From a virus (Duplodnaviria; Heunggongvirae; Uroviricota; Caudoviricetes), in the IMG/VR virus record IMGVR_UViG_638341086_000012, positions 1 to 18,720 of that record: DNA of 18,720 bases; one strand, written 5' to 3'. The position numbers were made by a program, and so were the translations under genes. Shown here piece after piece: positions 1-17,950 of this stretch (positions are counted from its first letter, which is position 1; each line of letters begins with the position of its first letter). Below the pieces are notes generated by a model. It ran no database searches. It was given only the letters and a program-made list of their open reading frames with translations, and was not told the origin of the DNA.

Positions 1-141
1 TTACTGCTTACACTGTAAGAACGCCGCAAACTCCGCTCCCCAGAAGCTCATCCGTATTTCACACAGCGAACCGTGCAACATCCAGATGATGAGGATTGCC
101 GTCACGCAGAACGTGATGGCCGTAAGCGATTTTTGCGACAT
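1..141 (-). CDS. hok: Hok/Gef-family type I toxin (small membrane peptide), 46 aa, not in the ORF track because it is under 60 aa
   Basis: Minus-strand ORF from ATG at 141 to TAA at 3-1 translates to MSQKSLTAITFCVTAILIIWMLHGSLCEIRMSFWGAEFAAFLQCKQ. One N-terminal hydrophobic helix plus the SLCE(I/L) and AAF(L/M)xC signature recalled from HokA/Hok/Gef. Match is from memory, not a search. Confidence 0.7.
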   Translation of the reverse strand: MSQKSLTAITFCVTAILIIWMLHGSLCEIRMSFWGAEFAAFLQCKQ

Positions 142-331
142 AGCACTTGCTCCTTTTCCGGAGAGGCGCTAACCTTTCACTTGTCAAGGTAATGCGGTTA
201 GGGCCTCGGTTAAACAGAGATGTTTTCCGGGGCCTTTCCACATCTGGCCTTCGGGTATTCCCTCCGACCATCAGCCGAAAGGCACCCGCGCGTAATCTAT
301 CGCTTTTTTGTTGCTCCGGCAATTCTGCCTG

Positions 332-592
332 TTAATCCTGAGGTAAAGGCAAACTCATCTGATTGTTTCCCCTGTGTGAAGCTGGCAGCTCATGCCACGG
401 GATACCTTCTGAAGAGTGAACGCCGGAGGCGTGTTTCGATGTGAATTTATGGAAAGCTTCCAGTGTTGAGAAGCATACACCGCATTCCAGGTTGTTACAC
501 TGGTAATACTTTTGCCGCACGGTATTTGAATCATTTTCCGGACGACTGGTACGGATGCGGGCAGATGCGCCACAAAGCGGGCAACGGAACAT
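332..592 (-). CDS. ogr: Ogr/Delta-family zinc-finger late-gene transcriptional activator
   Basis: N-terminus MFRCPLCGASARIRTSR...YYQCNNLECGVCF parallels P2 Ogr (MFHCPLCQHAAHARTSR...CQNVNC) with the same four-Cys spacing. Lies downstream of gpD on the same strand, as in P2. Confidence 0.88.
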   Translation of the reverse strand: MFRCPLCGASARIRTSRPENDSNTVRQKYYQCNNLECGVCFSTLEAFHKFTSKHASGVHSSEGIPWHELPASHRGNNQMSLPLPQD

Positions 593-786
593 AGCGACCT
601 CCCTTAACGCAGTGCTGATGTTATTCTAGGTCGTGCTGGCTATAATTCCAACTAACACTTCGTTTTAAGCGAATAGCAGATAGTCGAGTTATCATGTTAT
701 TAGCCAATAAATATACGTGGTAAAAGCTCTTTCTTCGATTTAAAATGTATCTGGATAGTAAATATCTTACGTTAAAGGAAATTGTT

Positions 787-1107
787 ATGGATTTTTTATC
801 TTCGGCGATACTTTCTGGCATAGTTTATGACATGCTTAAACATCATGTTTCGATTACTGCAACTTCAATAAAAGAAAAGTTAAAAAATTGGGTTATTGAT
901 GAGGCTGTAGCCCCTGCTTTAGCTAAAGAGCTTGAAAAACTGTCTTTGAACGATGAAATGAGTGAAATAGCAATTGAAAGAAAACTATTGGATAGTAGTG
1001 AAATTCAAAAAATACTCTCGTCTATAAAACCTCATGCAGCAACTGTCATTATTCAAAACCATAGTGGCACTGGTGATAATATTGGTGGAAATAAAATTAC
1101 GAGGTAG
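787..1107 (+). CDS. Hypothetical small protein (about 106 aa), first gene of the AT-rich cargo operon; no recognisable family
   Basis: ORF-track frame 745..1107. ATG at 787 is preferred because AAGGA at 775-779 sits 7 nt upstream; ATG at 745 has no SD. Very AT-rich relative to flanking phage genes. C-terminal motif IQNHSGTGDNIGGNKI recurs at the N-terminus of the next gene. Confidence 0.5.
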   Translation: MDFLSSAILSGIVYDMLKHHVSITATSIKEKLKNWVIDEAVAPALAKELEKLSLNDEMSEIAIERKLLDSSEIQKILSSIKPHAATVIIQNHSGTGDNIGGNKITR

Positions 1108-1112
1108 TGTCT

Positions 1113-3905
1113 ATGGATAACATTCATAGCTGCAGTTCAATTAGTCAAAATCATACCGGAACAGGCCATAATGTTGCTGGTAACTTAATTATATACAATA
1201 GTGATAATGTTGATTATGCGACTGAGTTAGCGATTGCTGTTTTAGTCGGTTGCTGGGATGAAAAAAATAATGGTGATATTGATATAATTACAAGCCTTAT
1301 TGGCGAGTCATATGACAGTTGGATTCGAAAATTAAGAATAATTGAAGGGATGCAAGATAGTCCTTTGATTCATGAGAGAGGTTCTTGGAGTTTTAAAGAT
1401 AGAATACAATCATTTCAAACGGTATCGTCAAGATTATTCGATGATCATTTGGATTTGTTTCGGACGACTGTTGTATCCGTTTTTAAAACTATCGACCCAC
1501 AATTTGAACTGGCACCTGAAGAGCGTTATGCAGCAGTAATTTATGGGAAGGTTTTACCACACAGCCGATTAATAAGGAAAGGACTATCCGAAGGGTTGGC
1601 ATTAGTTGCAACAAAGCAAGAGTTACTTACTAATTGCTCAAAATATAAAGGGCAATATTGCGCCTCAAGTGTGGTTAAAGAGGTTTTTTCGGCTTCTAGC
1701 TGGCAATTATGGGCTAGTACGCAAGATATTCAAGTTATGCTTGCGGAAAGTGCTCCTGACTGTTTTATCGACGAAGTGGAAAATGCTGCATCTCACCAAG
1801 ACAAGCCATTTGATTCACTTTTTGCACAGGAAGGTATCGGTGGTATTTCAGGTCGGAATTATATGACAGGACTGCTATGGGCTATTGAAGGATTAGCTTG
1901 GGCGCCTAACTATTTATCTCGCTCTTTAGTAATATTAGGGGAGCTGGATAGCCATGATCCTGGTGGCAATTGGGCTAACAGGCCACTTAACTCGATAATC
2001 AACATATTGTTACCATGGCTTCCTCATACTACAGCTGATATAGATAGACGTATTGCTGCTTTCAACGCATTGGCAAGGGAGTGGCCCGATACAGCATGGC
2101 GTGTTTTAGTTCAGTTGCTACCCAACAACACGCAAGTAACATCTGGCACACATATTCCAACTTTTAGAAACTTTATTCCTAACGGTTTTAATAAAAGGCC
2201 ATCGGGTGATGAGTACCGTACTCAGATTGAAATATACACTCAATTAACAATTGAATTGGCAAGTAAATCATCATTAAGACTTGTTGATTTAGTTGAAAAT
2301 ATTGGTAGATTAGCGCCATTTAAATTCGATGATGCAATTAAACTATTGTATGATTTTTCTAAAAAAACAGATAGTGCTGAATTGAAGTTAGCGGTGTGGG
2401 AAAAATGTTTAGAAGTTTATAACAAAAACAAAAGATTCTCAGGTGCTTATTGGGCAATGCAACCAGAACAAAATGAAAAAATCAAAGATGTTTCTACAGT
2501 CTTGAAGCCCGAAAATCCTATGCTTTATAGCAAGCGACTTTTTGCACAAAACAATTACTTCCTATTTGATGAAAATGGAAACTGGCGGGACCAAGAAGAA
2601 AGGTTGACAAAAGAACGAGGGCAATCAATATACGAAATATATGCTATTAATGGTATTGATGGAGTCTTAGAATTCTCTCTATCTATTGAAAGGCCTGAGT
2701 TTGTTGGTAGTAGCCTGGTCGCAGAAGATCTAGAAATTCCTTTAGATATACTGAAAAAACTTATTGTTAGTGATATTAAAAAGGAAAATTCTCTTGCTTC
2801 TGGTTATGTACAGGCTAAAAACTACAGAGAAGGAAAATCATGGGTGTTGACAGTTATTAATGACTGGAGTGCTCAAGAAAAGATTGCTTTTTTTCTTTTG
2901 TTACCGTTTAAAAAAGAAACATGGGATGCATTAAACGCTTCATTTGATGATTTTCCTTTCGAGTATTGGAAAAATACTCTTGTTAATGCATACAGCTGTG
3001 ATTCAACGGAAGAAATTTATTTTGCTATAGACTGCTTGATTAAAGTAGACCGTCCCTTGATGGCAATAGATTGTTTATCTAAAATTTTGCATATCGATAA
3101 TTCAGTTGATAGCAGTAAGGTTGTGCTTGCTCTATTGCAATCAATTAGAACCACAGAAAATATTGAGCGATTTGATATTCACTCATTTAATGAACTTGTG
3201 AATTATATTCAAAATGATAACACTGTTTCAGATGACGACTTAGTAAAGATTGAATGGGCATACCTACCTGTAATTAACAGGGGGGCTAATGATTCGTTGC
3301 ATCCTCAAGTATTAGAGAAAAAACTTGCAAGTGAACCCAGTTTTTTTTGTGAAGTCATTCAATATGCGTATCGATCAGAATTTCAAAAAGCAAGTAAAGA
3401 ACTATCTGAAAGTGAAATAAATATTGCCAAAAACTCACTCTATTTACTTGATGATTGGAAAAAGATTCCGGGTGTTGATGCTGAAGGCAAGTTTGATGTC
3501 AATGCGTTTAATAACTGGTTTGATTTTGTCCAAACAGAATGCGAAAAGTCAGGCCATTTAGATTTTGCTTATCATAGAATTGGAAGCATATTAATTTTTA
3601 GCCCTGCAAATGACGAGCATTGGATACTTCCAGAACTGGCCGAGTTTTTGAATAGACGTGAACTTGATAAAGTGCGTACTGGTTATAAGAATGCGATAAT
3701 AAATTCGCGTGGTGTCTACATTGTTGACCCAGAAGGTAAACCGGAATTGGAGTTGGCCCAACAATATCACACTAAGTCTGATGCAATGGAACTTCTAGGC
3801 TTTCATCGATTTGCCCGAATTCTTCGAGAGTTAGCTCATGAATACCAAGCGGAAGCTGAGTTGATAATAGAACAGCACAGTAAAAAAAAGATTGCTGAGA
3901 TTTAG
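1113..3905 (+). CDS. Large hypothetical protein (about 930 aa), AT-rich cargo; candidate accessory or defence protein of unknown family
   Basis: Uninterrupted 2.8-kb ORF (track 1107..3905; ATG at 1113 preceded by GAGG at 1101-1104). No Walker A, no obvious nuclease motif seen by eye. Sits between gpD and ogr, which are normally adjacent in P2, and on the opposite strand. Confidence 0.75.
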   Translation: MDNIHSCSSISQNHTGTGHNVAGNLIIYNSDNVDYATELAIAVLVGCWDEKNNGDIDIITSLIGESYDSWIRKLRIIEGMQDSPLIHERGSWSFKDRIQSFQTVSSRLFDDHLDLFRTTVVSVFKTIDPQFELAPEERYAAVIYGKVLPHSRLIRKGLSEGLALVATKQELLTNCSKYKGQYCASSVVKEVFSASSWQLWASTQDIQVMLAESAPDCFIDEVENAASHQDKPFDSLFAQEGIGGISGRNYMTGLLWAIEGLAWAPNYLSRSLVILGELDSHDPGGNWANRPLNSIINILLPWLPHTTADIDRRIAAFNALAREWPDTAWRVLVQLLPNNTQVTSGTHIPTFRNFIPNGFNKRPSGDEYRTQIEIYTQLTIELASKSSLRLVDLVENIGRLAPFKFDDAIKLLYDFSKKTDSAELKLAVWEKCLEVYNKNKRFSGAYWAMQPEQNEKIKDVSTVLKPENPMLYSKRLFAQNNYFLFDENGNWRDQEERLTKERGQSIYEIYAINGIDGVLEFSLSIERPEFVGSSLVAEDLEIPLDILKKLIVSDIKKENSLASGYVQAKNYREGKSWVLTVINDWSAQEKIAFFLLLPFKKETWDALNASFDDFPFEYWKNTLVNAYSCDSTEEIYFAIDCLIKVDRPLMAIDCLSKILHIDNSVDSSKVVLALLQSIRTTENIERFDIHSFNELVNYIQNDNTVSDDDLVKIEWAYLPVINRGANDSLHPQVLEKKLASEPSFFCEVIQYAYRSEFQKASKELSESEINIAKNSLYLLDDWKKIPGVDAEGKFDVNAFNNWFDFVQTECEKSGHLDFAYHRIGSILIFSPANDEHWILPELAEFLNRRELDKVRTGYKNAIINSRGVYIVDPEGKPELELAQQYHTKSDAMELLGFHRFARILRELAHEYQAEAELIIEQHSKKKIAEI

Positions 3906-4029
3906 TGTAGTGCTTGTAGTTTCGGAGAAATAAATCTTTGTTTATAAACATTTATAGTAACTACTGACATTGTTGCCGATTATAATTCGTCTTGGTGTAA
4001 GGCGGGTTACACTTGGCCAATCGGTGAAA

Positions 4030-4068
4030 GGCACAGAGCAAAACTCCAATTAGGTTTGCTTCTGTGCC
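4030..4068. terminator. Hairpin in the convergent intergenic region between the cargo operon and gpD; possible bidirectional terminator
   Basis: Inverted repeat GGCACAGAGCAAA (4030-4042) and TTTGCTTCTGTGCC (4055-4068), 13-bp stem with a one-base bulge and 12-nt loop. No strong T-tract on either side. Confidence 0.3.
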
Positions 4069-4115
4069 GTACGTAAGCATGCTAGCCCGTGTCTGAACTA
4101 ATGCATCCCAGTTGC

Positions 4116-5225
4116 TCACTCTGTTTCCGCTATCCATTCCGGGATTTTTGCCTCAAGCTCAAGCTGCGTGGTAAAACCGCTGTTATCAATGGTGTGCTCG
4201 GCTTTTGCAATAATCCAGTCCTGATTATCAATCTCGCTTTTAAATCCTGTTACCGTGCCATGCATTTCGGGGTAGAGTTCTGCACGTCCACGCGCCAGCG
4301 TGATGGAGAATGATGTGGCTCCGCGTTGTAGCTGCTGCCACTTTGCCGCCGCAGCGCGTCTTGCTGCCTGCTCGTTCTGATAAGTCTTGCGTAACACAAA
4401 CACATTTCCTTCCGCGCCTTCCATATAATCACCTTCACGGCTGCTGCTTTTCTCCTTTTTGGGTTTTGGCGGTTTGCGGCGTTTCACGCTGACTTTTTTC
4501 TTTTTCCCGTAATTAAGATCAAGCCAGTAGGCGCGTACCCCCGTATACGCCTCGCGGTCAGCAATACGGAACTGATGGCGATCGCCGCTGCTGCGTGTAA
4601 TGGCGAACGAGGGCAACGGCTGGCCCTGTGCGTTCACGCCACCACCTGGCATGATGAATAACAGATTGCCGCTTTTTACGGTGGTGATTGCGCCCAGCAT
4701 TTCCGCCATGCGCGTAAGAAAGGACATGTCGCTTTCTTCGGTCTGGTCGGCGTGGTCGATTTCGATATCCATCAGCATTTCGCTGATTTGCGGTTTCAGA
4801 CCATACCGATGAGCGATGGCGGATACCACACGCTCAACGGTCACATCATGCCAGGACACCTCACGTTTAACGTTAAATTCATCCCGAAAATCTGCGCTTC
4901 TGGCTGAAACAGTCAGCCTGTCCGGCGGTCCTTCGTGAGCGATTTCATCAACAATGTAAGTGCCTTTTTCTGTCAGCGGTTCTCCTTTCCAGCCAATGAG
5001 AACCGTCAGGCGCGCGCCCCGTGGCGGTAGCTGCAACTGACCATCTGCATCATCCAGCGTGATGGTGAGCTGGTCTGCTTCAAATCCCCGGTTGTCGGTC
5101 AGTGACAGGCTCATCAGGCGCTCTGCCACGCCTGACAGCGTTTTACCCTCCGCGAGAATATCAAAATCCGGCATTTTCACGGGGTCTGTGCCCTGACTGA
5201 GCAATTGCATGGTGGTGTCGGTCAT
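4116..5225 (-). CDS. D: P2 gpD-like late control / tail protein
   Basis: Translation (MPDFDILAEGKTLSGVAERLMSLSLTDNRGFEADQLTITLDDADGQ..., RLTVSARSADFR) matches P2 gpD as recalled. Start placed at ATG 5225 (MTDTTMQ...) because GGGAGGG lies 5-6 nt upstream; the ORF-track start at 5357 is an upstream extension. Confidence 0.88.
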   Translation of the reverse strand: MTDTTMQLLSQGTDPVKMPDFDILAEGKTLSGVAERLMSLSLTDNRGFEADQLTITLDDADGQLQLPPRGARLTVLIGWKGEPLTEKGTYIVDEIAHEGPPDRLTVSARSADFRDEFNVKREVSWHDVTVERVVSAIAHRYGLKPQISEMLMDIEIDHADQTEESDMSFLTRMAEMLGAITTVKSGNLLFIMPGGGVNAQGQPLPSFAITRSSGDRHQFRIADREAYTGVRAYWLDLNYGKKKKVSVKRRKPPKPKKEKSSSREGDYMEGAEGNVFVLRKTYQNEQAARRAAAAKWQQLQRGATSFSITLARGRAELYPEMHGTVTGFKSEIDNQDWIIAKAEHTIDNSGFTTQLELEAKIPEWIAETE

Positions 5226-5382
5226 CTGTTCCCTCCCTGTGCGGCATGGTCGCATGTGCGTGCAGAGGGGGGTACTGCTTTTTGTTGTCGCCGTGGCGGG
5301 AGAATGGCGCAGGAGTGAGATTACACGCGTGGTGGGTGATGATTGTTGCCGAATCATTTAACGGATACAAGGGGCTGAAGCT

Positions 5383-6567
5383 ATGAGTGAAACTCGTTTT
5401 CATGGTGCCCGTGTTACGGAAAATACCGACCTGGTAACAGCGATTAACGATGTTGATTCCAGCGTTATCGGTATCGTGGCAACGGCGGATGATGCGGACG
5501 CGAAGCTGTTCCCGCTGAACAAGCCCACACTGCTGACCCGCGTCAATGACGTGCTGGGAAAATGCGGGACAACGGGGACGCTTTATCGTGCGCTTAAGGC
5601 CATCGCAGACCAGGTGAGCACAAAGGTGATCGTCGTTCGCGTGGCTGAACACAAAGAAGAAGACGGAAAGACGCAGGATCAACTGGTTATCGGTGGTTCT
5701 GAGGATGACGGCAGCTATACGGGGATGTATGCGCTGCTTGTTGCAGAGCAGGATGAAAGCATCGGATACCGTCCGCGTATTCTGGCCGCGCCGGAGCTGG
5801 ACACGGAGGCTGTAACAAAATCCCTGTGCGTGATTGCAGGTAAACTGCGCGCGTTTGTGTATGCCTCATGTCACGGCTGTAACACGATGGCTGAGGCGAG
5901 TACCTACCGCCAGAAATTCAACGAACGTGAGGTGATGCTCTTATGGCCGGACTTCATCGCCTACAACCCAAAAAGTGGCAAAAACGAAACGTTCCCCGCG
6001 CCTGCCTATGCGTGCGGCCTTCGTGCGTACATTGACCATGAGCAGGGCTGGCACAAATCACTGTCCAACGTTCCGGTTAAAAATGTGCTGGGGATGTCGA
6101 GGCATGTGTTCTGGTCGTTGCAGGCCGAAGACAGCGATGCCAACAGCCTCAACAACAAAGAAATCACGACCATTATTCGTCGCAACGGGTTCCGCTTCTG
6201 GGGCAACCGCACACCGGAAACGAACGCCTACATCTTTGAGGTGTATACCCGAACCGCACAGGTGCTGGCTGATTCAATTGCGGAAGCGCAGTTTGAAACC
6301 ATCGACAGTCCACTGACGCCTGCGAACGTGAAGGATGTTATCAGTGCCATCAGGGCAAAACTGGATTCACTGGTTACTGCCGGGAAACTGATTGGCGCGG
6401 AGTGCTGGTATGACGTGGTGGATAACAGCACCACGAATTTATGTCAGGGGCGTGTGCGTATTCGCTACAAATATACGCCTGTTCCCCCGCTGGAAGATAT
6501 GGAGCTTTACCAGACGTTTACTGATGAATACTTTGAACCCGCATTTGCGGTGCTGGGAGGTGCCTGA
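5383..6567 (+). CDS. FI: Contractile tail sheath protein (P2 FI-like)
   Basis: 394-aa product with P2 FI-like blocks (FPLNKP, LRAF, YRQ, WPDF, DQEQGWHKSLSNV, IRRNGFRFWGNRT, YTPVPPLE). AAGGGG SD 8 nt before the ATG. Confidence 0.95.
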   Translation: MSETRFHGARVTENTDLVTAINDVDSSVIGIVATADDADAKLFPLNKPTLLTRVNDVLGKCGTTGTLYRALKAIADQVSTKVIVVRVAEHKEEDGKTQDQLVIGGSEDDGSYTGMYALLVAEQDESIGYRPRILAAPELDTEAVTKSLCVIAGKLRAFVYASCHGCNTMAEASTYRQKFNEREVMLLWPDFIAYNPKSGKNETFPAPAYACGLRAYIDHEQGWHKSLSNVPVKNVLGMSRHVFWSLQAEDSDANSLNNKEITTIIRRNGFRFWGNRTPETNAYIFEVYTRTAQVLADSIAEAQFETIDSPLTPANVKDVISAIRAKLDSLVTAGKLIGAECWYDVVDNSTTNLCQGRVRIRYKYTPVPPLEDMELYQTFTDEYFEPAFAVLGGA

Positions 6568-7079
6568 TGGCTGTGCCAAAACATCTTCGCTTTTTTACGC
6601 TGTTTGTGGATGGTGAAAACGAAGTGGGTAAGGTGACGTCCGTCACTCTGCCTAAGCTGACGCGCAAAACCGACAGCTACCGGGGTGGTGGCATGATGGG
6701 GGCGGTAAGTATTGATCTCGGTCTGGACGACTCCGCGCTTGATGCGAGTTTTGTTATGGGGGGAGCTGTTCGTGCGCTGTTCCTTAAATATGGCGGCACG
6801 ATTGACGGCACGCTGCTGCGTTTTGCGGGTGAATACTACACCGATGCAGAAAGCGATCTGTATGAAATCGAGATGCGCGGACGTGTGACGGAAATTGATA
6901 TGGGGGAAGCCAAACAGGGCGAAGCCACATCACACACTTACGCTGTCAAAAACACCTACTACAAGCTGAGCGTTAACGATCGCCCGCTGTGGGAAATCGA
7001 CCTGTTGAACCACATCTACCGGAAGGACGGCAAGGACATTGTGCCTGACCGTATCCGTTCCGCGCTTGGGCTTGGCTGA
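6567..7079 (+). CDS. FII: Tail tube protein (P2 FII-like)
   Basis: 170 aa; TLPKLTRKTDSYRGGGMMGAVSIDLG matches the P2 FII N-terminus. Start overlaps the FI stop (TGATG), and GGGAGG lies 8 nt upstream. Confidence 0.95.
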   Translation: MAVPKHLRFFTLFVDGENEVGKVTSVTLPKLTRKTDSYRGGGMMGAVSIDLGLDDSALDASFVMGGAVRALFLKYGGTIDGTLLRFAGEYYTDAESDLYEIEMRGRVTEIDMGEAKQGEATSHTYAVKNTYYKLSVNDRPLWEIDLLNHIYRKDGKDIVPDRIRSALGLG

Positions 7080-7134
7080 TAAGTAATATGCAGGCGGCGC
7101 AGTGCGTCGCCTCTGACTGAAAAGGAGACAACTG

Positions 7135-7509
7135 ATGAAAGACATCGATACTGAAACCCGGAATAACACCGTGGCGGATGATGTGACGGCAGGTGAGGAT
7201 ATGGCTGTCGAACGTGGCGTAAAACTGACCCGACCAATTGAGCGTGGTGGCGAAAAAATCACGTATGTGGAGATCACCGGGGCTATTGAACAGGCTGGAT
7301 CCCTGCGTGGTCTGTCGCTGTCTGATGTGCTGAATCTGAAAGCGGATACCATGTTCATGCTGTTGCCTCGCGTGACCTCGCCACGACTGGATGAAGTGAT
7401 GATTAAAAAAATGTCGTCACGCGATTTTATTCAGTTGTGCGCTGTGGCTGTAAATTTTATGAGCGAGCCAGACTCTGGCGCGAAGAGCGTGCAGGAGACG
7501 GCAGCGTAA
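7135..7509 (+). CDS. E: Tail assembly chaperone gpE-like (upstream frame of the E/E' pair)
   Basis: Position between tube and tape-measure genes; AAGGAG SD 7 nt upstream of ATG 7135; a -1 frame ORF overlaps its 3' end, as in P2 E/E' and lambda G/GT. Confidence 0.8.
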   Translation: MKDIDTETRNNTVADDVTAGEDMAVERGVKLTRPIERGGEKITYVEITGAIEQAGSLRGLSLSDVLNLKADTMFMLLPRVTSPRLDEVMIKKMSSRDFIQLCAVAVNFMSEPDSGAKSVQETAA

Positions 7510-7673
7510 TCACCCTAGTGTGCTTTGAGCACATCGAAGATCTGGTGGCAGATATCGCCGCCATTTTTAACTGGTCGCCCGCCGAAATCTTCATGATGAC
7601 GCCCGGCGAAGTGGTTAGCTGGCGTGAGCGGGCGGCACTTCGCAGCGGGAATGCAGACAATGAAGACTCTTGA
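7135..7673 (+). CDS. E+E': gpE+E' fusion made by programmed -1 ribosomal frameshift (coordinates span both frames)
   Basis: The -1 frame is open from 7407 to the stop at 7671-7673 and encodes ...HIEDLVADIAAIFNWSPAEIFMMTPGEVVSWRERAALRSG. Candidate slippery sites in the overlap are the A7 run at 7405-7411 and A AAT TTT at 7452-7458. Confidence 0.65.
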
Positions 7674-10467
7674 TATCCGGGTCGCTTTCAGCGCCGTTGA
7701 CAGGCTGACCCGGCCTGCCGAAAACGCCCGCCGCCTGATGGGGCAGTTTGGTGACTCCATCCAGCGAACGCAGGGGGCGATCAAAAATCTCGAGCGTCAG
7801 GCGCGTTCATTTGAGCGCGCCCGTGACGCTGTCAGTAAAGCGGATGCGGGCATCGTGAAAGCACGACGCCAGCTTAACGCCCTTAATCAGTTACAACGCA
7901 CGGGTACAGTGCTCAGCGAAAAACAACAAAAGCTGATGCAGCAGTTAAGCACCCGGCTTGAACGCCTGAATGAATCGCGCACACGGGAAATTCAGAAAAT
8001 GCGGGAGCTTGGCGGAGAACTGAAACGCCACGGCATTTCCCTGACAGGCAGCGATAACACCATTCAGCAGGCCATCAGACGCACCGAACAATACAACAAC
8101 CAGCTTGAACGCGAACGGCAGGCGCTTGCGCGTGTAACGCAGGCGCGTGAGCGGTATTCGCGCGCGCAGGAAACAGCGGGAAAACTGAAAACAGGTGGTG
8201 CGCTGGCAATTGGTGCGGCAGCGGCGGGCGGCTATGCTGCCGGGCGTTTTTTGCAGCCTGCGATCGGGTTCGGCAAAGAGATGTCCCGCGTTCAGGCACT
8301 GACGCGAATCGACAAAAACAGCCCGCAGTTTAAGGCGCTGCGTGAGCAGGCGTTAAAACTTGGCTCTGAAACACAGTTTACTGCGAGTGATGCCGCCAGT
8401 GGGCAGAGCTTTCTGGCAATGGCTGGTTTTACTCCGCAGGCCATTCAGGCCGCATTGCCCGGTGTTCTTAATATGGCGCTGGCAGGCGGCGTCGAACTCG
8501 GCGAGACGGCTGATATAGGCTCCAATATCCTCACACAGTTCAACCTGACAGCCGATCAAATGGACCGGGTGGGCGATACGCTGACAGCAGCATTTACCCG
8601 GACCAATACTGATTTACGCGCGCTGGGCGAAACCATGAAGTATACCGGTCCGGTTGCCGCAAAACTTGGTATCAGTCTTGAAGAAGCGGCGGCCATGGCC
8701 GGGATGCTTGCCAATAATGGTCTTCGCGGAAGCGATGCTGGCACGGCCATGCGCGCAAGTCTGTCCCGCCTTGCATCACCGCCAAAAGCTGCGGCTGATG
8801 CACTGAAAGAGCTGGGGGTGTCAGTTGCTGACGCCAGAGGCAAAATGCGCCCGATGGAGGATGTGCTGCTTGATCTCTATAAGGCGACACAAAAATACGG
8901 ACAGGTGGACCAGGTCTCCTTCTTCAAGGACATCGCCGGAGAAGAGGCGTTCGTTGGTTTGCAGACGCTTGTTGCGGCGGCTGGTTCAGGAGAGCTGCAA
9001 AAACTGACCAGAGAATTGCAGGGGGCAAGGGGAGAGGCCGATCGCGTTGCAAAAGTAATGGCCGATAATCTTGATGGGGACCTGAAAAATCTCGACAGCG
9101 CATGGGAAGGTCTTCGTATTCGCATCAGTGATCTGGTTGACGGTCCGCTGCGTTCTGTCACGCAGTGGCTCACGCGGATGCTTGAAAAAATCACCTCGCT
9201 GGCGCAGGCCCATCCGGTACTGACGCGCCAGCTACTGATAGCAGGCGGTGCGTTGCTGGCAATGACTGCAACGATTGGCTCGTTGTCGCTGGTTATTGGG
9301 GTGCTTTACGGGAAGCTGGCCACCTTGCGTATTGGTTTTGACATTCTTACCCGGTCAATGAATGTCGTCAGGGTGTTGCCTGCGCTATGGGGAATGGTGA
9401 CGGGTTCCGTTTCTTTACTGGGAGGCGCTATCGGGGCGTTGTTCAGTCCGGTTGGTCTTGTCGTTGCTGCGCTTGCCGGAGCTGCCGTTCTTATCTGGAA
9501 ATACTGGGATCCCATCAGGGCATTTTTTGCCGGGGTGTTCAGCGGGATTATGGAAAGGCTGACCCCGTTGCGCGAAACCTTTGAACGGTTTGGTCCTGTT
9601 TTTGACGCAATCGGAAGCGGGATCAGCCAGGTGTTTAACTGGTTTAAATCGCTGCTGTCACCGATGGAGTCCAGCAAGGAAACGCTGGATAAATGTACCA
9701 GTGCTGGCGAGATATTCGGTAACGTTCTTGGTGGAGCGTTACAGCTTGTTCTGACGCCTGCAAAAATGTTGCTGGATACGCTGGCGTGGATACTTGAAAA
9801 ACTCGGTGTGCTTCCGGATGAAGCGGAAAGGGCGCGCAAGAAAATCGAAGACGCACAGCGTGCGGCCATTCTTCAGGACAAGGTTGCTCTGTTTCAGGGA
9901 GACATTGCGAAAATCAATCCGCCAAAGCCTGTAGAAAATGGCAATGGCACCGGAGGTGATAAACCCAAAGACAATAAACCGCTCACAGACAGCAATATCG
10001 GTACGCTGCGCAGACTAAGCAAAATTGCTGATAACACAGGTAAGCTGGTTGATGAGACGAAAAAACGCATTGGCCCCGGCGATATTGTCTTTAAGAACCT
10101 GCCCCGCGCACTTGCTGTTCGTGGGGAGTGGCAGGAGCGGAAGATTGCGCAGGTCAGTAAGCCTGCCCCCGCAATTAATATCACCCCCGTGGTTCCGGCT
10201 CCGCTGCCTCCGGCGCTGGTCCCTGTTGTTGCGGCCAGCACCCGCCCGGTGGCGGAGGCCATACGATCACCAGTAGCATCAGTGCCTGCAACTTCCCGTA
10301 ACCGGGAGCCTGTTGCCTCCGGATTTGGTGGTGAAATTCATGTTCATCTGCATAACGTTGTTACGCAGAATCCCCACGAACTGGCGAAACTGGTCGGTGA
10401 AATGGTCAGGGCAGAAATGGAACGGCGCGCCCGTGCCGGGCGTGGCAGTTTTTACGATAAAGATTGA
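7660..10467 (+). CDS. T: Tail tape measure protein (P2 gpT-like)
   Basis: About 935 aa, coiled-coil-rich N-terminal part, central hydrophobic glycine-rich segments, Pro/Ala-rich C-terminal part; immediately follows E/E'. Start uncertain: ATG 7651 or 7660 (ORF-track frame opens at 7624). Confidence 0.9.
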   Translation: MKTLDIRVAFSAVDRLTRPAENARRLMGQFGDSIQRTQGAIKNLERQARSFERARDAVSKADAGIVKARRQLNALNQLQRTGTVLSEKQQKLMQQLSTRLERLNESRTREIQKMRELGGELKRHGISLTGSDNTIQQAIRRTEQYNNQLERERQALARVTQARERYSRAQETAGKLKTGGALAIGAAAAGGYAAGRFLQPAIGFGKEMSRVQALTRIDKNSPQFKALREQALKLGSETQFTASDAASGQSFLAMAGFTPQAIQAALPGVLNMALAGGVELGETADIGSNILTQFNLTADQMDRVGDTLTAAFTRTNTDLRALGETMKYTGPVAAKLGISLEEAAAMAGMLANNGLRGSDAGTAMRASLSRLASPPKAAADALKELGVSVADARGKMRPMEDVLLDLYKATQKYGQVDQVSFFKDIAGEEAFVGLQTLVAAAGSGELQKLTRELQGARGEADRVAKVMADNLDGDLKNLDSAWEGLRIRISDLVDGPLRSVTQWLTRMLEKITSLAQAHPVLTRQLLIAGGALLAMTATIGSLSLVIGVLYGKLATLRIGFDILTRSMNVVRVLPALWGMVTGSVSLLGGAIGALFSPVGLVVAALAGAAVLIWKYWDPIRAFFAGVFSGIMERLTPLRETFERFGPVFDAIGSGISQVFNWFKSLLSPMESSKETLDKCTSAGEIFGNVLGGALQLVLTPAKMLLDTLAWILEKLGVLPDEAERARKKIEDAQRAAILQDKVALFQGDIAKINPPKPVENGNGTGGDKPKDNKPLTDSNIGTLRRLSKIADNTGKLVDETKKRIGPGDIVFKNLPRALAVRGEWQERKIAQVSKPAPAINITPVVPAPLPPALVPVVAASTRPVAEAIRSPVASVPATSRNREPVASGFGGEIHVHLHNVVTQNPHELAKLVGEMVRAEMERRARAGRGSFYDKD

Positions 10468-10479
10468 GGAGTCATGGCC

Positions 10480-10968
10480 ATGATGATGATCTACGGCATG
10501 TTTGTTTTTGAGCTGCGTACGTTGCCGCATCAGCAGTTACAGCAAAACAAAAGCTGGCGGCATGTGAAAAATGAACGCGTTAACCGTTCAGCAAGCTGGC
10601 AGTATATCGGTGCAGGTGATGATCGCATCGTTCTTTCTGGTGTGCTTTATCCTGAAATTACAGGTGGTGAAGTGTCGCTGTCGCTGCTGACCACGCAGGC
10701 GTATACAGGACGCCCCTGGCCTCTGATTGATGGCGTCGGGCAGATTTACGGCATGTATGTCCTGACCGGAACGAATACGACCCGTTCCGAGTTTGATCGC
10801 TACGGTAAGGCGAAAAAGATAGAATTTTCACTGACTCTTGAACGCTGTGATGAGGATTTGCGGGAGCGCCTGCAATCCTCATCGTTCAGCGATATGTTGT
10901 CCGGCTTCAAAGATAAGGTGACATCATCCCTTAATAGTGCGGCCAGCTCAGTTAAGGGGCTGCTCTGA
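10480..10968 (+). CDS. U: Tail protein gpU-like
   Basis: MMMIYGMFVFELRTLPHQQLQQ...WRHVKNERVNR parallels P2 gpU (MMMVLGLFVFMLRT...). GAGGAG at 10466-10471 favours ATG 10480 over the ORF-track ATG 10474. Confidence 0.9.
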   Translation: MMMIYGMFVFELRTLPHQQLQQNKSWRHVKNERVNRSASWQYIGAGDDRIVLSGVLYPEITGGEVSLSLLTTQAYTGRPWPLIDGVGQIYGMYVLTGTNTTRSEFDRYGKAKKIEFSLTLERCDEDLRERLQSSSFSDMLSGFKDKVTSSLNSAASSVKGLL

Positions 10969-11044
10969 TTTAACGTATGTCGCCAATTTCCTGATGAAGG
11001 TGACTGGCGACTTGCTGTTGTATGTCCTTCTCAGAAAATTGTTT

Positions 11045-11073
11045 TTGAATAACAAATAACAGGATTTTATAAT
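11045..11073 (+). promoter_or_regulatory. Near-consensus sigma70-type promoter for the acetyltransferase cargo gene
   Basis: TTGAAT (11045-11050), 17-bp spacer, TATAAT (11068-11073); then AAGGAG (11113-11118) and GTG start at 11125. Confidence 0.5.
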
Positions 11074-11124
11074 CTCTTAACCTTATAACATGTGTGGTCT
11101 GAAATAATAATTAAGGAGATTTTC

Positions 11125-11697
11125 GTGCTGTCTTACTTAATGGCAATTCACTTTGTTTTATTTGGGAAGTCTACTAATTTAAAAAACTTCTGGAAACATG
11201 AAGTAATTCGGCGAAAACGTATGGATATCTGGAGGCTTTTAAGAGAGAAAAAGCAGCGTAACCGGAATTTCCTTTTCTGGTGGCGGTTGGCTAACGAAAT
11301 GTATATTAATGGTAATAAATTACATAAGAAAGCAGCCAAAAAGTTAAACAGTAAAATAATTAACAAATTTGGTTGTGAAATAGGATTGGGAGCAAATATT
11401 GGAAAAGGGTTAACAATTCCCCATCATGCTGGAATTGTTGTTCATTTTGCTGTTGATGCGGGTGAAAATCTGGTATTACGACAGAATACTACCATTGGAC
11501 AGATAGATGGTGACATGCCTGGTTCAAGAGTGAAAATTGGTAGTAACGTTGATATCGGAGCTAATTGTTGCATCATTGGATTGTCACGTAAAATTGGGGA
11601 TAATGTAAAAATAGGTGCAATGTCTTTTATAAATAAAGATATACCATCAAACTGCACATATATAACTAAAAAGAGTGGTGTTGTATTGTATAAATAG
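11125..11697 (+). CDS. Hexapeptide-repeat (left-handed beta-helix) acyl/acetyltransferase, CysE/WcaB/LacA-like; AT-rich cargo gene
   Basis: Repeated [LIV]-G-x-x-x-x hexapeptide pattern (IGLGANIGKGLTIPHHAGIVV, KIGSNVDIGANCCIIG, KIGDNVKIGAMSFI). Strongly AT-rich versus neighbours. ORF-track frame opens at 11092; GTG 11125 is chosen for its SD. Confidence 0.75.
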   Translation: MLSYLMAIHFVLFGKSTNLKNFWKHEVIRRKRMDIWRLLREKKQRNRNFLFWWRLANEMYINGNKLHKKAAKKLNSKIINKFGCEIGLGANIGKGLTIPHHAGIVVHFAVDAGENLVLRQNTTIGQIDGDMPGSRVKIGSNVDIGANCCIIGLSRKIGDNVKIGAMSFINKDIPSNCTYITKKSGVVLYK

Positions 11698-11704
11698 AGT
11701 ACAT

Positions 11705-11745
11705 AAAGCCATCGATATTTCTGTCGATGGCTTTTTCTTTTTATT
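11705..11745 (+). terminator. Rho-independent terminator after the acetyltransferase gene; the same hairpin lies just past the stop of gene G on the other strand
   Basis: Perfect 11-bp stem AAAGCCATCGA (11705-11715) / TCGATGGCTTT (11724-11734), 8-nt loop, followed by TTTTTCTTTTTATT on the plus strand. Confidence 0.65.
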
Positions 11746-12325
11746 GTGGGGCGACTGGCCACTCAACATCCGCTGCTACTGTTGTATCAACACGATTCAA
11801 CAATACCCGATATGTCTTCCATGCAGCCAGTAACGATGCCTCTTCCTCCGTCGCAATATCCAAATCTACGGCATCCTGAAGTGGCGCAATATGCTCACTG
11901 GCTACCTGCATCAGGCTGTTTTTTGTTTCTTCTGCCTCCTGTACCCGAAACAGTTTTTCTGCTTCTGCATCTTTCACCCAGGATGTGCCGTTCCACTTCT
12001 GACACTCTCCATCCGGCGACAACCAGGTAACATTTTCCGGTAACGGACCGAGTTCAGAAATAAATAACGCGTCCCCTGATGCCACGTCATAAACAGTTTT
12101 ACCCCGATGGTCTTCAACGAGATGCCACGATGCCTCATCACTGTTGAAAACAGCCACGAAGCCAGCCGGAATATCTGGTGGTGCAATATCGGTACTGTTT
12201 GCAGGCAGACCTGTATGAGGTGGAATGTATGCATCACCTTCCCCAATAAATTCATTAGTTCCGGTCAGCAGGTTATAAATTTTTATGGTCCGTGATTGTT
12301 CACTCATTCTGAAATCCATGTTCAC
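11741..12325 (-). CDS. G: Tail fibre assembly protein / chaperone (gpG/Tfa family)
   Basis: C-terminus ...[34 protein letters not shown] is the conserved Tfa C-terminal signature as recalled; about 190 aa. GTG at 12325 or ATG at 12319. Confidence 0.85.
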
Positions 12326-12327
12326 CT

Positions 12328-13230
12328 CTACTTAATATCAGAGACAGAATATTGTTTATTGAGCGTATGGGTAGGAGTACCAATAACGATGCTACTTCCG
12401 TGGCTATGTGCGCCAGAGGTGACATTACCTACGGGATTTTCTGGATTAATCCGGTGTATATGCGAACCAGGGCGAAAACGGTTATTAGCCTGATGTTGTA
12501 TCAGTACATCATCAGCCTGATGTTCAGGGTTAATACAGATTTGCCCGGAACGAGAGCAACACGTCCGATAATCGCCGCATCCAATATATTTAGTATCCGC
12601 ATAACGGCAAACGGAATTACCCGGACAGTATGCATATGTGCCAAATACTGCCGACTGGCGAGATTGTGCGTATTCCCAGTTAATTGATTCTGTTTTTTTA
12701 TTAAAGTTATCCCATGCCTGCTTCATCTGTCGGGCAACACTTTCAAACGGCACCTGACCACATCCGGCCCCCATTGCAGGGAATACCACTGTTTTTATTT
12801 TCATGTCTGTCGTTGCGTTTTTATTGTGCTGAAAGATGGCAAGCAGAGCGGCCCAGGTTGCGTTATATACAGCGTCTGTTCCGTCAATTGTCAACGGAAC
12901 ACGCATTGTTGGCGCATGTACCAGCCAGGGGTGATGATTATGCCCCGTTTCAATGACAAATGCAGAACCTACAGGCTGTTCGCCGAGATATTCACGAAGA
13001 ATATGATTCTGAACGCGGGACTGTAACTGAGTACCGAAGAATGCGGTAATGGCGGCATCAACGCCACCATCCATCAGGCCGAAACTATTTGCCGCACTTA
13101 CCATGCAGTCAAATTCTCTGATTGTTTCAAATGGCTTTCCGACAATATTCACACTATCTGCATTTGCAAATACCTGCTTAAATGCTTCAGCCATTTCTGT
13201 TACTGGTGCAGAAAGAATGAGCGTAATCAT
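12328..13230 (-). CDS. Macro-domain (ADP-ribose-binding / hydrolase fold) protein with a Cys/His-rich C-terminal extension, inserted between H and G
   Basis: Macro-domain motif blocks seen by eye: [60 protein letters not shown]-terminal 120 aa contain CPGNSVC...[16 protein letters not shown] and His-rich [11 protein letters not shown] overlaps the H stop (ATGA at 13227-13230); GAGG SD 5 nt upstream; stop 3 nt before the G start. Confidence 0.8.
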
Positions 13231-15053
13231 GCAAGCCTCACAATATAGTTAAATGCGATGTTTTTTACGGTGTTTTCTGCGTTACCCGTAGCGTTAACGG
13301 TGATGGTATGCCCGTGTGAACCTATCGCAACGGAGTGTGTGTGTGCGCCAATTCCTACCGTATGAGTGTGTGCGCCAATATTTACTGTGTGAGAGTGCCC
13401 CCCTGCGTTACTTGTTTTTCCAGTGCCAAGTCCTGAGTTATAACCAGCCGAAACACCATTACCTGCGCCAGTGTTGCCAACAGGAATATTGTGTGAATGA
13501 TCCCCGGCGCTATTCGTGGTTTTAGTGCCATGGTTAAATGAACTGGACGTCTTGGTGCCGTAGTCAAATGATGATGTGGTTTTTGTCCCCAAGTCCGTAC
13601 TGGACGCGCTGGCACTGTGGGAGTGTGATTTAATGCCGTCCTGTTCCTGAGATAATACGGCCCGACCACTGGCGGGTTTGCCCTTAATCGTCCAGCCACG
13701 CATATCAGGGATCACACCAGACGGATAAGCGACTGCAAGCAGGGGATAGACTGTTTTATCAAAAGTCTGCCCCTGCATAACGGTATAGCCTGTAGGCACT
13801 GAATCAGAAGGCCACGGTATCGCCGCACCTACCGGAAATGAATCTTGTGGCGTCCATGGTGTCCAGTCACCCGTTGAGTACTGGCTGCGGGTATAGCTTC
13901 TGGATGTGTCATACACATAGTAAATCTGTGTTATCCCGGCATTTTTAAGCACAACCAGTGTACCCGCAAAATTCTCCGGGTATTTCAGCGCTGCGCTTGT
14001 ATTGGCATTCAATGGCTGATGGTACAGCCCCGGTGTTTTGTAATTATCCAGATTCTGATTTGCACCAATCTCAATACTCTGGTCGTTAAAAATATCCTGC
14101 GATGTAACATTGACATCATTGGCTAGTGATTTGCCATTAACCTTACGTCCAGAGGGCACACGCCCGTTTGCATTGTCATTAGCGGCTTTCACCGCTTTCG
14201 GAGTCGCGGCAAGCGTTTCAGAATCACTGTTAGTGACGCTACTGAGCTGGACTATTCCTTTTCGTGCCGTCGTGGCGTCCTGTGCGGTATATTTCCCGTT
14301 AGCAAGGTCATAGGCTGCCTTTACCGCCTTTGGTGTTGCCGCCAGCGTTTCTGAATCGCTGTTGGTGGCGCTACTGAGCTGGGCTATTCCTTTTTGTGCC
14401 GTCGTGGCATCCTGAGCGGTATATTTCCCGTTAGCAAGGTCATAGGCTGTCTTGACCGCTTTCGGCGTTGCGGCCAGTGCTTCAGACGTGCTGTTAGTGG
14501 CGCTACTGAGTTGAACAAAGCCTTTTGCGGTCAGCGAGGCGTCCGGGTGACGTCGTGACTGTTCATGTTCTTTCAGTTTGTCATTCACGTAATCCACTGT
14601 GGCCATCACCATGGTGTTATCCACGGTAAGCGCCACGGTGGCAGTGCTGGATACGGTCAGAATGGTGCGAAATGTTTGTGCACGTCCGGACCCCTCGGCA
14701 ACGGTTGGTTTGTAACTTTCGGCAGTATTGCCCACCGCGATTAAATCGCCGTGCTCATCAAATACACCAATTTCCCGGATCCAGAATCCACCCGTTTCAG
14801 GAGGAATAACCAGCTCCGCAATAATGCGGTTCTGATGTGTTGCGTCCAGGATGACGCGATTAACAGTATGTCGCCACACCTCATGCACCAGACGGGTCTG
14901 CTTACTGTCTGGTGTGGGCAACGTGCCGCCACCGTCGCCCACGGCCATGTGAGTCAGGCGGACAGGATTACCATCTGGCGCGGCTGCCTGAGCTAATTTT
15001 TTGGCACCAGTATCAGTGATAATGGTTTTAAATTTACGTGTTGTGGTACTCAT
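13227..15053 (-). CDS. H: Tail fibre protein (P2 gpH-like)
   Basis: N-terminus [26 protein letters not shown]...MAVGDGGG...HEVWRH...[10 protein letters not shown] matches P2 gpH; internal [36 protein letters not shown] repeats; C-terminal HxH-rich tip ([33 protein letters not shown]) ending [11 protein letters not shown]. Confidence 0.95.
14160..14528 (-). repeat. About 2.8 tandem copies of a 132-bp (44-aa) coding repeat inside tail fibre gene H
   Basis: DNA segment containing ...ggtatatttcccgttagcaaggtcataggctg... recurs with a 132-bp offset (14286 vs 14418). Encodes KG(F/I)[40 protein letters not shown](Q/R). Confidence 0.85.
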
Positions 15054-15055
15054 GC

Positions 15056-15586
15056 TTAATCGTCCGGATAAATGGTAATGACTTCACCGTCGTAAGTTGC
15101 TGCCGCCGCGAAAATATCCCCCGGGATCTCCTGAATGATATTCAGCCCTGTCATGTGGCGGCTGACCGGGCGGGCATCAGCAATCAACCGCTCCATTTCC
15201 AGATACATTTCCTCCGTCACGCCACTGTCCAGCGTGCCGACTTCAACGGTAAATGTTCCCGGTTCTCCGCCGAACTCCCACCACTCAGACACACGAATGA
15301 GGTATCCCAGCGGCTCAATGGCCCGGCGCAGTGCGCTGATGGTCCCTTTGTGTCGGTGTATCAGCCATGCATCACGAATCACCTGTCGCTTTGTCTCTTC
15401 CGGCCAGTTGCGATCCCAGCGGTCAACGGAAAATGCCCAGGCGAGATAAGGCAGCAGATGCACCGGGCAGGTGTCCGGCGACCACAGCGTGTTGAGGTCT
15501 ACCGGAATGTCTGTAATGCGCGTTCCGACAGCTTCGGCACAACGCATGAAATTGCTGGCTGATGGCGGTAACAGTGAATTACTCAT
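15056..15586 (-). CDS. I: Baseplate assembly protein gpI-like
   Basis: [20 protein letters not shown]...[14 protein letters not shown]...[19 protein letters not shown] matches P2 gpI. ATG 15586 (176 aa, overlapping the J 3' end) fits the P2 gpI N-terminus; ORF-track start 15619 is an extension. Confidence 0.9.
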
Positions 15587-16475: not shown

Positions 16476-16478
16476 GAT

Positions 16479-17900
<1,422 letters not shown>

Positions 17901-17950
17901 CCACTACAAGGTGCTTAAGAGTGAAGTTTCATTTAGATGAACTTAAAAGA

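Follow-up and report, generated by a model that had tools for sequence, protein, structure and literature searches.

A flipped F operon as the normal layout of P88-like phages: a tail-gene remnant in Escherichia coli with a predicted divergent late promoter

In phage P2 (NC_001895) the late genes follow the order V W J I H G fun(Z) FI FII E E' T U D ogr; every one of them save fun(Z) lies on the same strand, and D closes the F operon. At the P2 promoters P_P and P_O, one activator site (3057–3087) serves two divergent starts (3016 and 3127), which lie ~55 nt to either side of it. Four Ogr-dependent operons and the site consensus TGT-N12-ACA have been stated for this system (PMC3931495), and the Ogr/Delta late-promoter features used here are a TGT-N12-ACA dyad ~55 nt upstream of the start, a −10 element, the lack of a good −35 element and a requirement for an Ogr/Delta zinc-finger activator. 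Two P2-like phages of the genus Xuanwuvirus are known to be functional: P88 is inducible by mitomycin C and forms plaques with a burst size of ~65 (PMC5285337), and Citrobacter phage ΦSM is released spontaneously and lysogenises K-12 (PMC6456863). The genome organisation of these phages is already known; our literature search turned up no explicit discussion of the flipped F operon in P88-like phages.

The window, by which we mean the whole stretch of 18,720 nucleotides from IMG/VR record IMGVR_UViG_638341086_000012, represents the half of a decayed P88-like prophage (Peduoviridae, genus Xuanwuvirus) that carries the tail genes, flanked in E. coli by ihfA and btuC. The prophage end that adjoins ihfA carries a hok/gef-family toxin gene (1–141, minus strand; Pfam HOK_GEF and the RefSeq annotation of an identical sequence). 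It is followed by ogr (332–592, minus strand; Pfam Ogr_Delta, 52.4 bits), whose translation is an ogr/delta-type zinc-finger late activator with its four cysteines at C4, C7, C32 and C37. The tail/baseplate hub protein gpD (late control D; Pfam Phage_GPD) is encoded at 4116–5225 on the minus strand and is 52% identical to P2 gpD. The open reading frame of 413 aa delimited by the program (4116–5357) is over-long as D, since alignment with P2 gpD from M1 and the RefSeq annotation both put the start at 5225. Beyond the 157-bp D/FI spacer (5226–5382), the plus strand carries the genes for the sheath, FI (5383–6567; Pfam sheath domains), the tube, FII (6567–7079; Phage_tube), the chaperones E (7135–7509) and E' (7518–7673; both Phage_P2_GpE, with E' in the −1 frame relative to E), the tape measure, T (7660–10467; Pfam), and U (10480–10968; Phage_P2_GpU). 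The minus strand resumes with tfa/G (11741–12319), a macro-domain open reading frame (12328–13230; Pfam and RefSeq annotation), fibre gene H (13227–15053), I (15056–15586), J (15579–16475) and a remnant of W, W', all within 11741–16751; tfa/G, H, I and J were assigned with Pfam. The window thus holds a P2-type contractile tail module comprising gpD, FI, FII, E/E', the tape measure, gpU, gpI, gpJ and tail-collar fibre domains, and all its proteins score above the Pfam gathering threshold with the sole exception of E (20.9 bits against 25).

These assignments bear out the original prediction that the block FI-FII-E/E'-T-U (5383–10968) is flipped relative to P2, with D, ogr and G-H-I-J-W' on the opposite strand, and the P2 order on which it relied agrees with the P2 record. 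The strand arrangement is identical in P88 and the other Xuanwuvirus members compared (P884B11, 500465-2, 520873, 503458, PhiR44_2, Chuche and ΦSM). P88 and its relatives share 93–95% nucleotide identity with the window over 1–631, 4110–10974 and 14177–16649, stretches that correspond to hok-ogr, D-FI-FII-E-T-U and H (N-terminal part)-I-J-W. Over 4110–10974, P88 and ΦSM are 93–94% identical to the window in the same orientation, and the D/FI spacer is 99% identical between the window and P88/Xuanwuvirus. Over the shared genes the identity is that expected within Xuanwuvirus, a comparison that applies to those genes and not genome-wide, the element being a remnant. The Xuanwuvirus order of hok-ogr-D, FI-FII-E-T-U and G-H-I-J-W-V-S-R is likewise present, with V, S and R missing.

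A search of other genomes, which the original prediction had suggested, showed that the arrangement is widespread. At a coverage of at least 80%, the divergent D/FI junction is found in 1,357 of the 5,426 complete E. coli genomes and, among phages, in 13 records, besides Serratia phage KSP20 at 70% identity; a full prophage of O169:H41 also has the flipped arrangement. All 54 sampled loci whose sheath is at least 58% identical to that of the window carry the divergent junction, and their hosts belong to over 20 genera of Enterobacterales, with one Aeromonas MAG in addition. A scan of genome contigs gave a consistent picture: D lies on the minus strand ~1.28 kb upstream in each of the 52 loci that reach 58% identity in FI, and I/J, where detectable, are on the minus strand downstream of U. 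In most relatives ogr directly adjoins D. The 28 scanned loci with FI no more than 52% identical, from hosts including Acinetobacter, Burkholderia, Pseudomonas, Dyella and Moraxella, all have the P2 order except for one (L068), whose sequence stops before U/D and which has J and I upstream on the same strand. A neighbour-joining tree of FI separates the flipped and the P2-order types into reciprocally monophyletic groups. We considered whether the Xenorhabdus and Photorhabdus loci might be those of the xenorhabdicin (xnp1) tailocin but make no such claim: the published layout of the latter, with a variable fibre region beside the sheath gene (PMC13280938), shows no obvious match to the one seen here.

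The flip is almost certainly the normal, working layout of P88-like phages (Xuanwuvirus and its kin), neither damage nor a novelty. Of the two readings originally offered, a distinct lineage organisation has proved right. The other, a rearrangement that inactivated the prophage, is refuted because intact and inducible phages of the P2 type (P88, ΦSM, 500465-2, 520873, PhiR44_2 and Chuche) form a family with the same arrangement, the finding that had been named in advance as speaking against it. An inactivating inversion private to this genome would fit the fact that the prophage is indeed defective, but it is left with next to no probability now that one complete E. coli genome in four, and plaque-forming phages too, show an identical arrangement. 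Moreover, the defect has its own explanation: the prophage was disabled by a deletion whose end lies in W, next to an IS3 element, and not by the flip. In blastn comparisons P88 homology stops inside W at 16649, at which point lies an IS3-family element (16650–17900, plus strand; NCBIfam transpos_IS3, 268 bits); next come two hypothetical genes and, outside the window, btuC, as seen in a genome that is 100% identical over 14400–18720. In contrast to P88, nothing past W is retained: V, S, R and the lysis, head, replication and integrase genes are gone, and with them the capsid, terminase, lysis, replication and integrase functions of a complete, inducible genome. Thus, the element is the remnant of a Xuanwuvirus member and not a functional phage. 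A switchable segment of the Mu G or P1 C kind, caught in one of its orientations, is also highly improbable. Such a reading might draw on the DNA (serine) invertase that P88, ΦSM and the O169:H41 prophage encode directly after U; this invertase, however, is positioned to invert the neighbouring alternative fibre/tfa cassette, and neither the window nor most distant relatives have it, yet they keep the arrangement all the same. Only a single orientation occurs in the 54 P88-type loci and in every phage record, and the search for inverted repeats at the ends of the block that was originally suggested gave nothing relevant: among the 25 longest of 30 pairs, none joins 5226–5382 with 10969–11124.

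Cargo genes had originally been placed at or near both junctions of the flipped block. This holds for the right-hand junction (10969–11740), where P88 homology ends at 10974 and gives way to a region of 34% GC in place of the P88 invertase and alternative fibre cassette. It carries a hexapeptide (serine-type) acetyltransferase gene (11125–11697, plus strand) with its own sigma70-like promoter (11045–11073) and a bidirectional terminator after it (11705–11734). The left cargo (787–3905, plus strand), by contrast, lies away from the junction: its two genes, of ~35% GC, appear from their composition to have been inserted between D and ogr. The first (787–1107) encodes GapS6a (NCBIfam NF047935, 136.6 bits against a cutoff of 90) and the second (1113–3905) its 930-aa partner, with the Pfam domain HetE-N in the pair; they are predicted to be a GAPS6-like anti-phage system. 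GapS6a was recognised through NCBIfam, and PADLOC returned no match for any cargo protein. The D/ogr gap and the U/G junction are therefore cargo insertion spots, occupied here by the putative defence pair and the acetyltransferase gene.

In P2, D comes at the end of the F operon; with FI-U flipped, it needs a promoter of its own. The original prediction placed this promoter in the short D/FI spacer, a proposal that comparative footprinting supports, and pointed to a strong GGGAGGG Shine–Dalgarno sequence for D, which is indeed present on the minus strand (5232–5238), 6 nt before the D ATG. The spacer contains a candidate activator box, TGT-N12-AGA (5286–5303, centre 5294.5), with one mismatch to the P2-type TGT-N12-ACA. 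Conserved −10-like hexamers stand 46 nt to either side of it: GATGAT (5338–5343) in the FI direction and, read on the minus strand, GACCAT (5246–5251) in the D direction, which would place the starts of transcription at ~5350 (plus) and ~5239 (minus). We aligned 52 unique spacers with MAFFT (53 were entered; that of L052 was too short to align) and complemented the alignment with a box-anchored profile. All 52 have a box at the homologous position, with 28 exact TGT-N12-ACA, 21 with one mismatch and three with two. The distance from box centre to FI ATG is 76.5–89.5 nt (median 83.5), whereas box-to-D-ATG distances are unreliable in distant relatives, where the D start codons were extrapolated. 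Hexamers of the form nAnnnT at exactly ±46 nt occur on the D side in 45 and on the FI side in 47 of the 52 spacers.

The box of the window itself is degenerate, with AGA in place of ACA and with AGAAT against the AGAAC of close relatives in E. coli, and it was detected only through comparison of the P88 D/FI and P/O spacers. GTTGT-N12-AGAAC also occurs in the P88 terminase/scaffold (P/O) spacer in a similar layout, and the CGCGCGCG run of the conserved D-side block recurs there before one of the −10 elements. An exact TGT-N12-ACA is found once in the window, at 12407 inside the macro-domain frame, which is below chance expectation. The consensus scan for sigma70 promoters and terminators gave no more sites than shuffled sequence and was of use only for the acetyltransferase promoter, the terminator at 11705–11734 and a minus-strand sigma70-like promoter for ogr (first hexamer starting at 651, second ending at 623). 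We also considered whether the D-side block might be a coding part of a longer D and rejected this, as P2 D aligns from 5225; in 42 of the 52 loci, in-frame stops appear at widely differing distances (3 to 183 nt), a rough test given the extrapolated start codons.

Throughout the lineage FI-FII-E/E'-T-U diverges from D-ogr and converges with R-S-V-W-J-I-H-G, and we propose that, relative to P2, this goes back to a single old, fixed inversion of the F operon minus D. The flip would be workable because a dyad activator site (TGT-N12-ACA) can serve promoters on both sides, as at P_P/P_O of P2. Ogr, we infer, would bind ~55 nt upstream of each start and turn both promoters on: P_F would drive FI to U, ending after U, and the second promoter would drive D, in most relatives reading on into ogr. 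Taken as a whole, the combination of a P88-like tail-half remnant, an old, fixed inversion of the F operon without D and a promoter pair sharing one box appears likely to be correct. We lean, if only slightly, towards a more specific scenario in which the inversion itself moved the dyad P_F box beside D and so turned a one-way into a two-way promoter; the flip would then have been tolerated and later fixed across a wide enterobacterial clade, with one Ogr box co-regulating FI-U and D-ogr, and D-ogr acting as a positive feedback unit. The literature search returned no description of a bidirectional P_F/P_D promoter in P88-like phages.

The lineage arrangement could be real and D still lack a divergent Ogr-dependent promoter, being served by a separate constitutive or early promoter or forming an ogr-type early-late unit with ogr, with the D-side block having some other purpose. 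We regard this as rather doubtful but deserving of attention, in that ogr of P2 owns a sigma70 promoter (NC_001895) and ogr of the window has a similar site, GACCAT is a poor −10, and the predicted start at ~5239 would give a leader of only 14 nt, opening at the Shine–Dalgarno sequence. Against it, the D-side hexamer keeps its fixed 46 nt from the dyad centre, like that on the FI side, in spacers that otherwise diverge; the P88 P/O spacer shares the design, the run before one −10 included; and D, a late structural protein, is required at the same time as FI-U. A divergent Ogr-dependent promoter thus most likely drives D. As for the direction of change, we consider it unlikely that the P88 arrangement is ancestral and the collinear P2 order derived. 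The midpoint-rooted sheath tree, which shows just two reciprocally monophyletic groups, gives no polarity by itself, but the P2 order is common to the far more distant hosts and lineages of the contig scan. It is also the order of HP1, phiCTX and R-pyocins, and in Mu-like phages the sheath, tube, tape measure, U-like and D-like genes are collinear. The polarity adopted here, with the P2 order as the probable ancestor, is based on such outgroup gene orders (phage Mu among them) together with the midpoint-rooted tree.

For annotation and prophage calling, departure from the P2 order is no evidence of damage, because a prophage family present in about one-quarter of complete E. coli genomes is normally flipped. 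The proposed mechanism makes a testable prediction, namely that D, and in most relatives also ogr, is expressed from a divergent promoter sharing one Ogr box with P_F. The more specific scenario, in which the inversion itself made the promoter two-way, would if true illustrate how operon inversions can become nearly neutral through symmetric activator sites.

Beyond the loss of the genes past W, the window differs from P88 in its GAPS6-like insert between D and ogr and in having the acetyltransferase gene, the macro-domain frame and a fibre tip/tfa of lambdoid type at the site of the P88 invertase and alternative fibre cassette. With P2 it shares the genes of the F operon, their internal order FI FII E E' T U, and D followed by ogr; FI is 45% identical, and the box-to-FI-ATG distance is similar, at 89.5 nt against 82.5 nt at P2 P_F. 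Whereas FI-U-D-ogr of P2 are collinear with V-G, FI-U of the window are flipped. By sequence, the D/FI spacer has the same layout as P_P/P_O of P2, although for D/FI this is a prediction from conservation. Another P2 relative, Stenotrophomonas phage Smp131, has members of its V and F operons redistributed, with TGT-N12-ACA-like boxes proposed for each unit, P_P' and P_O' having a single palindromic site in common (PMC3931495). In Smp131, however, members were exchanged between operons with no flip of FI-U (PMC3931495), whereas in the P88-like phages the FI-U block is inverted as a unit.

The ORF listing and profile searches used to call genes in the window bore out the gene identities of the original prediction. 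On the minus strand, the left end carries hok/gef (1–141), ogr (332–592) and gpD (4116–5225), followed on the plus strand by FI (5383–6567), FII (6567–7079), E (7135–7509), E' (7518–7673), T (7660–10467) and U (10480–10968). The right part, again on the minus strand, contains the tail-fibre assembly gene tfa (11741–12319), a 300-aa macro-domain ORF (12328–13230), the fibre gene H (13227–15053), I (15056–15586), J (15579–16475) and, to the right of J, a stump of W. The annotated P2 record has the order V W J I H G, fun(Z), FI FII E E' T U D ogr, with fun(Z) on the other strand and V–G and FI–ogr collinear. As the P2 record is collinear and the strands of the window are mixed, the FI-to-U block is indeed flipped relative to P2.

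Of the two readings originally offered for this flip, a distinct lineage organization is the correct one: it is the ordinary gene order of a known, very common phage genus and of the wider clade around it. In a megablast search against phage genomes, the window was 93–95% identical to members of the genus Xuanwuvirus (P88, P884B11, 500465-2, 520873, 503458, PhiR44_2 and Citrobacter ΦSM), whose annotations show the same strand pattern, with the sheath-to-U genes opposite in strand to D before them and to the fibre and baseplate genes after them. A full prophage of Escherichia coli O169:H41, located at the ihfA–btuC site like the element in the window, has this arrangement too: its head and lysis genes and R, S, V, W, J, I and H are collinear with D and ogr. 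Among complete E. coli genomes, 1,357 of 5,426 matched an 801-bp probe spanning the D|FI junction at 80% coverage or more, nearly all of them at 95–99% identity; 13 phage records matched it as well. P88 is induced by mitomycin C and forms plaques, with a burst of ∼65 (PMC5285337), and ΦSM is released spontaneously and lysogenizes K-12 strains (PMC6456863). Since these phages share the order, the alternative reading, an inactivating rearrangement, does not hold.

The defect of this particular prophage lies in the truncation of W and the loss of V, S, R, X and the lysis, head, replication and integrase genes, all absent from the element, and is therefore unrelated to the flip. Positions 1–14526 are 100% identical to E. 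coli O39:NM F8704-2 and 14400–18720 to strain Z1323HEC0393; in both strains the element, flanked by ihfA and btuC, breaks off within W. Homology of the window to P88 stops at 16649, inside W, where an IS3-family element (16687–17900 by ORFs; orfA 16687–17034, orfB 17154–17900) is followed by two hypothetical genes and then, beyond the window, btuC. F8704-2 has the same W truncation without this IS, and its fibre gene is disrupted.

Cargo genes had been placed at or near both junctions of the flipped block, which is true of only one of the two low-GC inserts (787–3905 and about 10975–11740; ∼35% GC versus ∼55% in the phage genes). The left insert separates D from ogr, genes that abut in most relatives (tblastn of the loci from the sheath scan described below), and thus marks an insertion hotspot in the D–ogr unit rather than an inversion junction. 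It carries, on the plus strand, a gene of the GapS6a family (NCBIfam score 136.6 bits, cutoff 90; also Pfam HetE-N) and a 930-aa partner with no match in Pfam, NCBIfam or PADLOC. GAPS6 is an anti-phage system of two genes (bioRxiv 10.1101/2023.03.28.534373), and the insert looks like a system of this type.

The right insert does occupy the U|G junction, taking the place of the invertase and alternative fibre cassette of P88. It consists of a plus-strand gene (11125–11697; 34% GC) for a hexapeptide acetyltransferase of the serine/colanic-acid type, with the best sigma70-like match of the window (a promoter-like site at 11045–11073) and a strong bidirectional terminator at 11705–11734; it may be a lysogenic-conversion gene. 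The region 11133–13836, spanning fibre tip, tfa and acetyltransferase, is 88% identical (megablast) to side-tail-fibre modules of lambdoid/Stx-type phages, including JL22, Ro157c2YLVW and mEp460, which indicates that a receptor-binding cassette has been exchanged between P2-like and lambdoid phages. Those matches do not include the macro gene, which lies between H and tfa, its start overlapping the H stop, and has homologues beside fibre genes in Chuche (83%) and in Gifsy-1 and Salmonella phages SEN4/SEN5 (68–69%); a fibre accessory function and reversal of ADP-ribosylation are candidate roles.

A sheath-alignment scan with one genome per species returned 80 loci, in each of which D, FII, T, U, I, J and ogr were located by tblastn. 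In all 52 loci with a sheath at least 58% identical to that of the window, D is encoded on the opposite strand, ∼1.28 kb upstream, and just past D comes ogr wherever detected (50 of 52); I and J, where detected, are downstream of U on the opposite strand, except in one rearranged locus. These P88-type loci come from Salmonella, Citrobacter, Edwardsiella, Enterobacter, Kosakonia, Pantoea, Erwinia, Mixta, Symbiopectobacterium, Brenneria, Pectobacterium, Serratia, Klebsiella, Raoultella, Kluyvera, Yokenella, Trabulsiella, Rouxiella, Photorhabdus and Xenorhabdus, and from an Aeromonas MAG. Two contigs labelled Vagococcus sp. WN89Y (L009 and L079) carry enterobacterial P88-type and P2-type tail genes, the P88-type one being 96% identical to E. 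coli sequence, and are probably from a contaminated or mixed assembly. All 28 loci with a sheath at most 52% identical have the P2 order (one, L068, seen only in part): Acinetobacter, Burkholderia, Paraburkholderia, Pseudomonas, Dyella, Moraxella, Celerinatantimonas and three enterobacterial loci close to P2.

The two arrangements form reciprocally monophyletic groups (54 versus 29 tips) in a neighbour-joining tree of the sheath. A switchable segment was considered and rejected: among the 25 longest of the window's 30 inverted-repeat pairs, none joined the two junctions, and the block had a single orientation among the loci scanned. Together with the monophyly, this identifies the flip as an ancient feature that is fixed in one clade. 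The collinear order is found in far more remote lineages, and also in HP1, phiCTX and R-pyocins and, for sheath-to-D, in Mu-like phages; we therefore take the P88 order to be derived.

The flip leaves D and FI divergent across a 157-bp spacer (5226–5382), from which D had been predicted to be expressed with a strong Shine–Dalgarno sequence; GGGAGGG does lie 6 nt before the D ATG, and comparison of spacers supports a late promoter there. Expression of the P2 late operons requires Ogr, whose site of action is a TGT-N12-ACA element (PMC3931495). Of 53 unique D|FI spacers from P88-type loci, one (L052) was too short; the other 52, when aligned, have a homologous box, exact in 28, deviating at one position in 21 and at two in three, and many of these boxes extend to a longer dyad, GTTGTC-N10-GACAAC. 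The distance from box centre to FI ATG is 76.5–89.5 nt (median 83.5, compared with 82.5 in P2 P_F). A gap-free, box-anchored profile revealed two more conserved elements, mirrored exactly 46 nt from the dyad centre: towards FI, a GAttAT-type element whose second and sixth positions are A and T in 47/52 and, on the D strand, an AAtCAT-type element (45/52) preceded by a conserved CGCGCGCG run. This run is directly upstream of the putative D −10 in most relatives and is degenerate in the window (GCATGTGCGTGC, 5252–5262 region). In the window, the box (5286–5303) is itself degenerate, TGT...AGA rather than TGT...ACA, and is flanked by putative −10 elements towards FI (5338–5343) and D (5246–5251), with predicted starts at ∼5350 (+) and ∼5239 (−) and a D leader of only 14 nt. 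Judging from these alignments, the spacer is probably a two-way Ogr-dependent late promoter, its P_F side serving FI–U and the second promoter serving D and, in most relatives, reading on into ogr. Had one inversion breakpoint lain ahead of the P_F box and the other in the U–D interval, the box would have come to sit directly beside D, a possible reason for tolerance of the flip. A close match to the D|FI box, spacer included (GTGGTCGCTGGGCCGGGAGAAC), occurs within a DUF2570 lysis-region gene ∼460 nt upstream of R in full P88-type prophages (18642–18663 in L006, 31903–31924 in L005); it could represent a late promoter internal to the gene or simply be coincidental.

The arrangement itself was already known, and the gpD-like and gpFI-like genes of Serratia phage KSP20 are also divergent, at only 70% identity; the two-way late promoter, a comparative prediction, is the sole new element. 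Its proposed design has parallels in both P88 and P2. The P88 terminase|scaffold spacer shares GTTGT-N12-AGAAC with the P88 D|FI spacer and has the same layout, with CGCGCGCG ahead of one −10, on the terminase side (about 14185–14192 in L006). In the P2 record, a single activator site (3057–3087) serves the divergent P_P and P_O starts (3016 and 3127), 55–56 nt to either side; −10 elements at 46 nt from the dyad centre would give start sites ∼55.5 nt away, in line with the P2 geometry.
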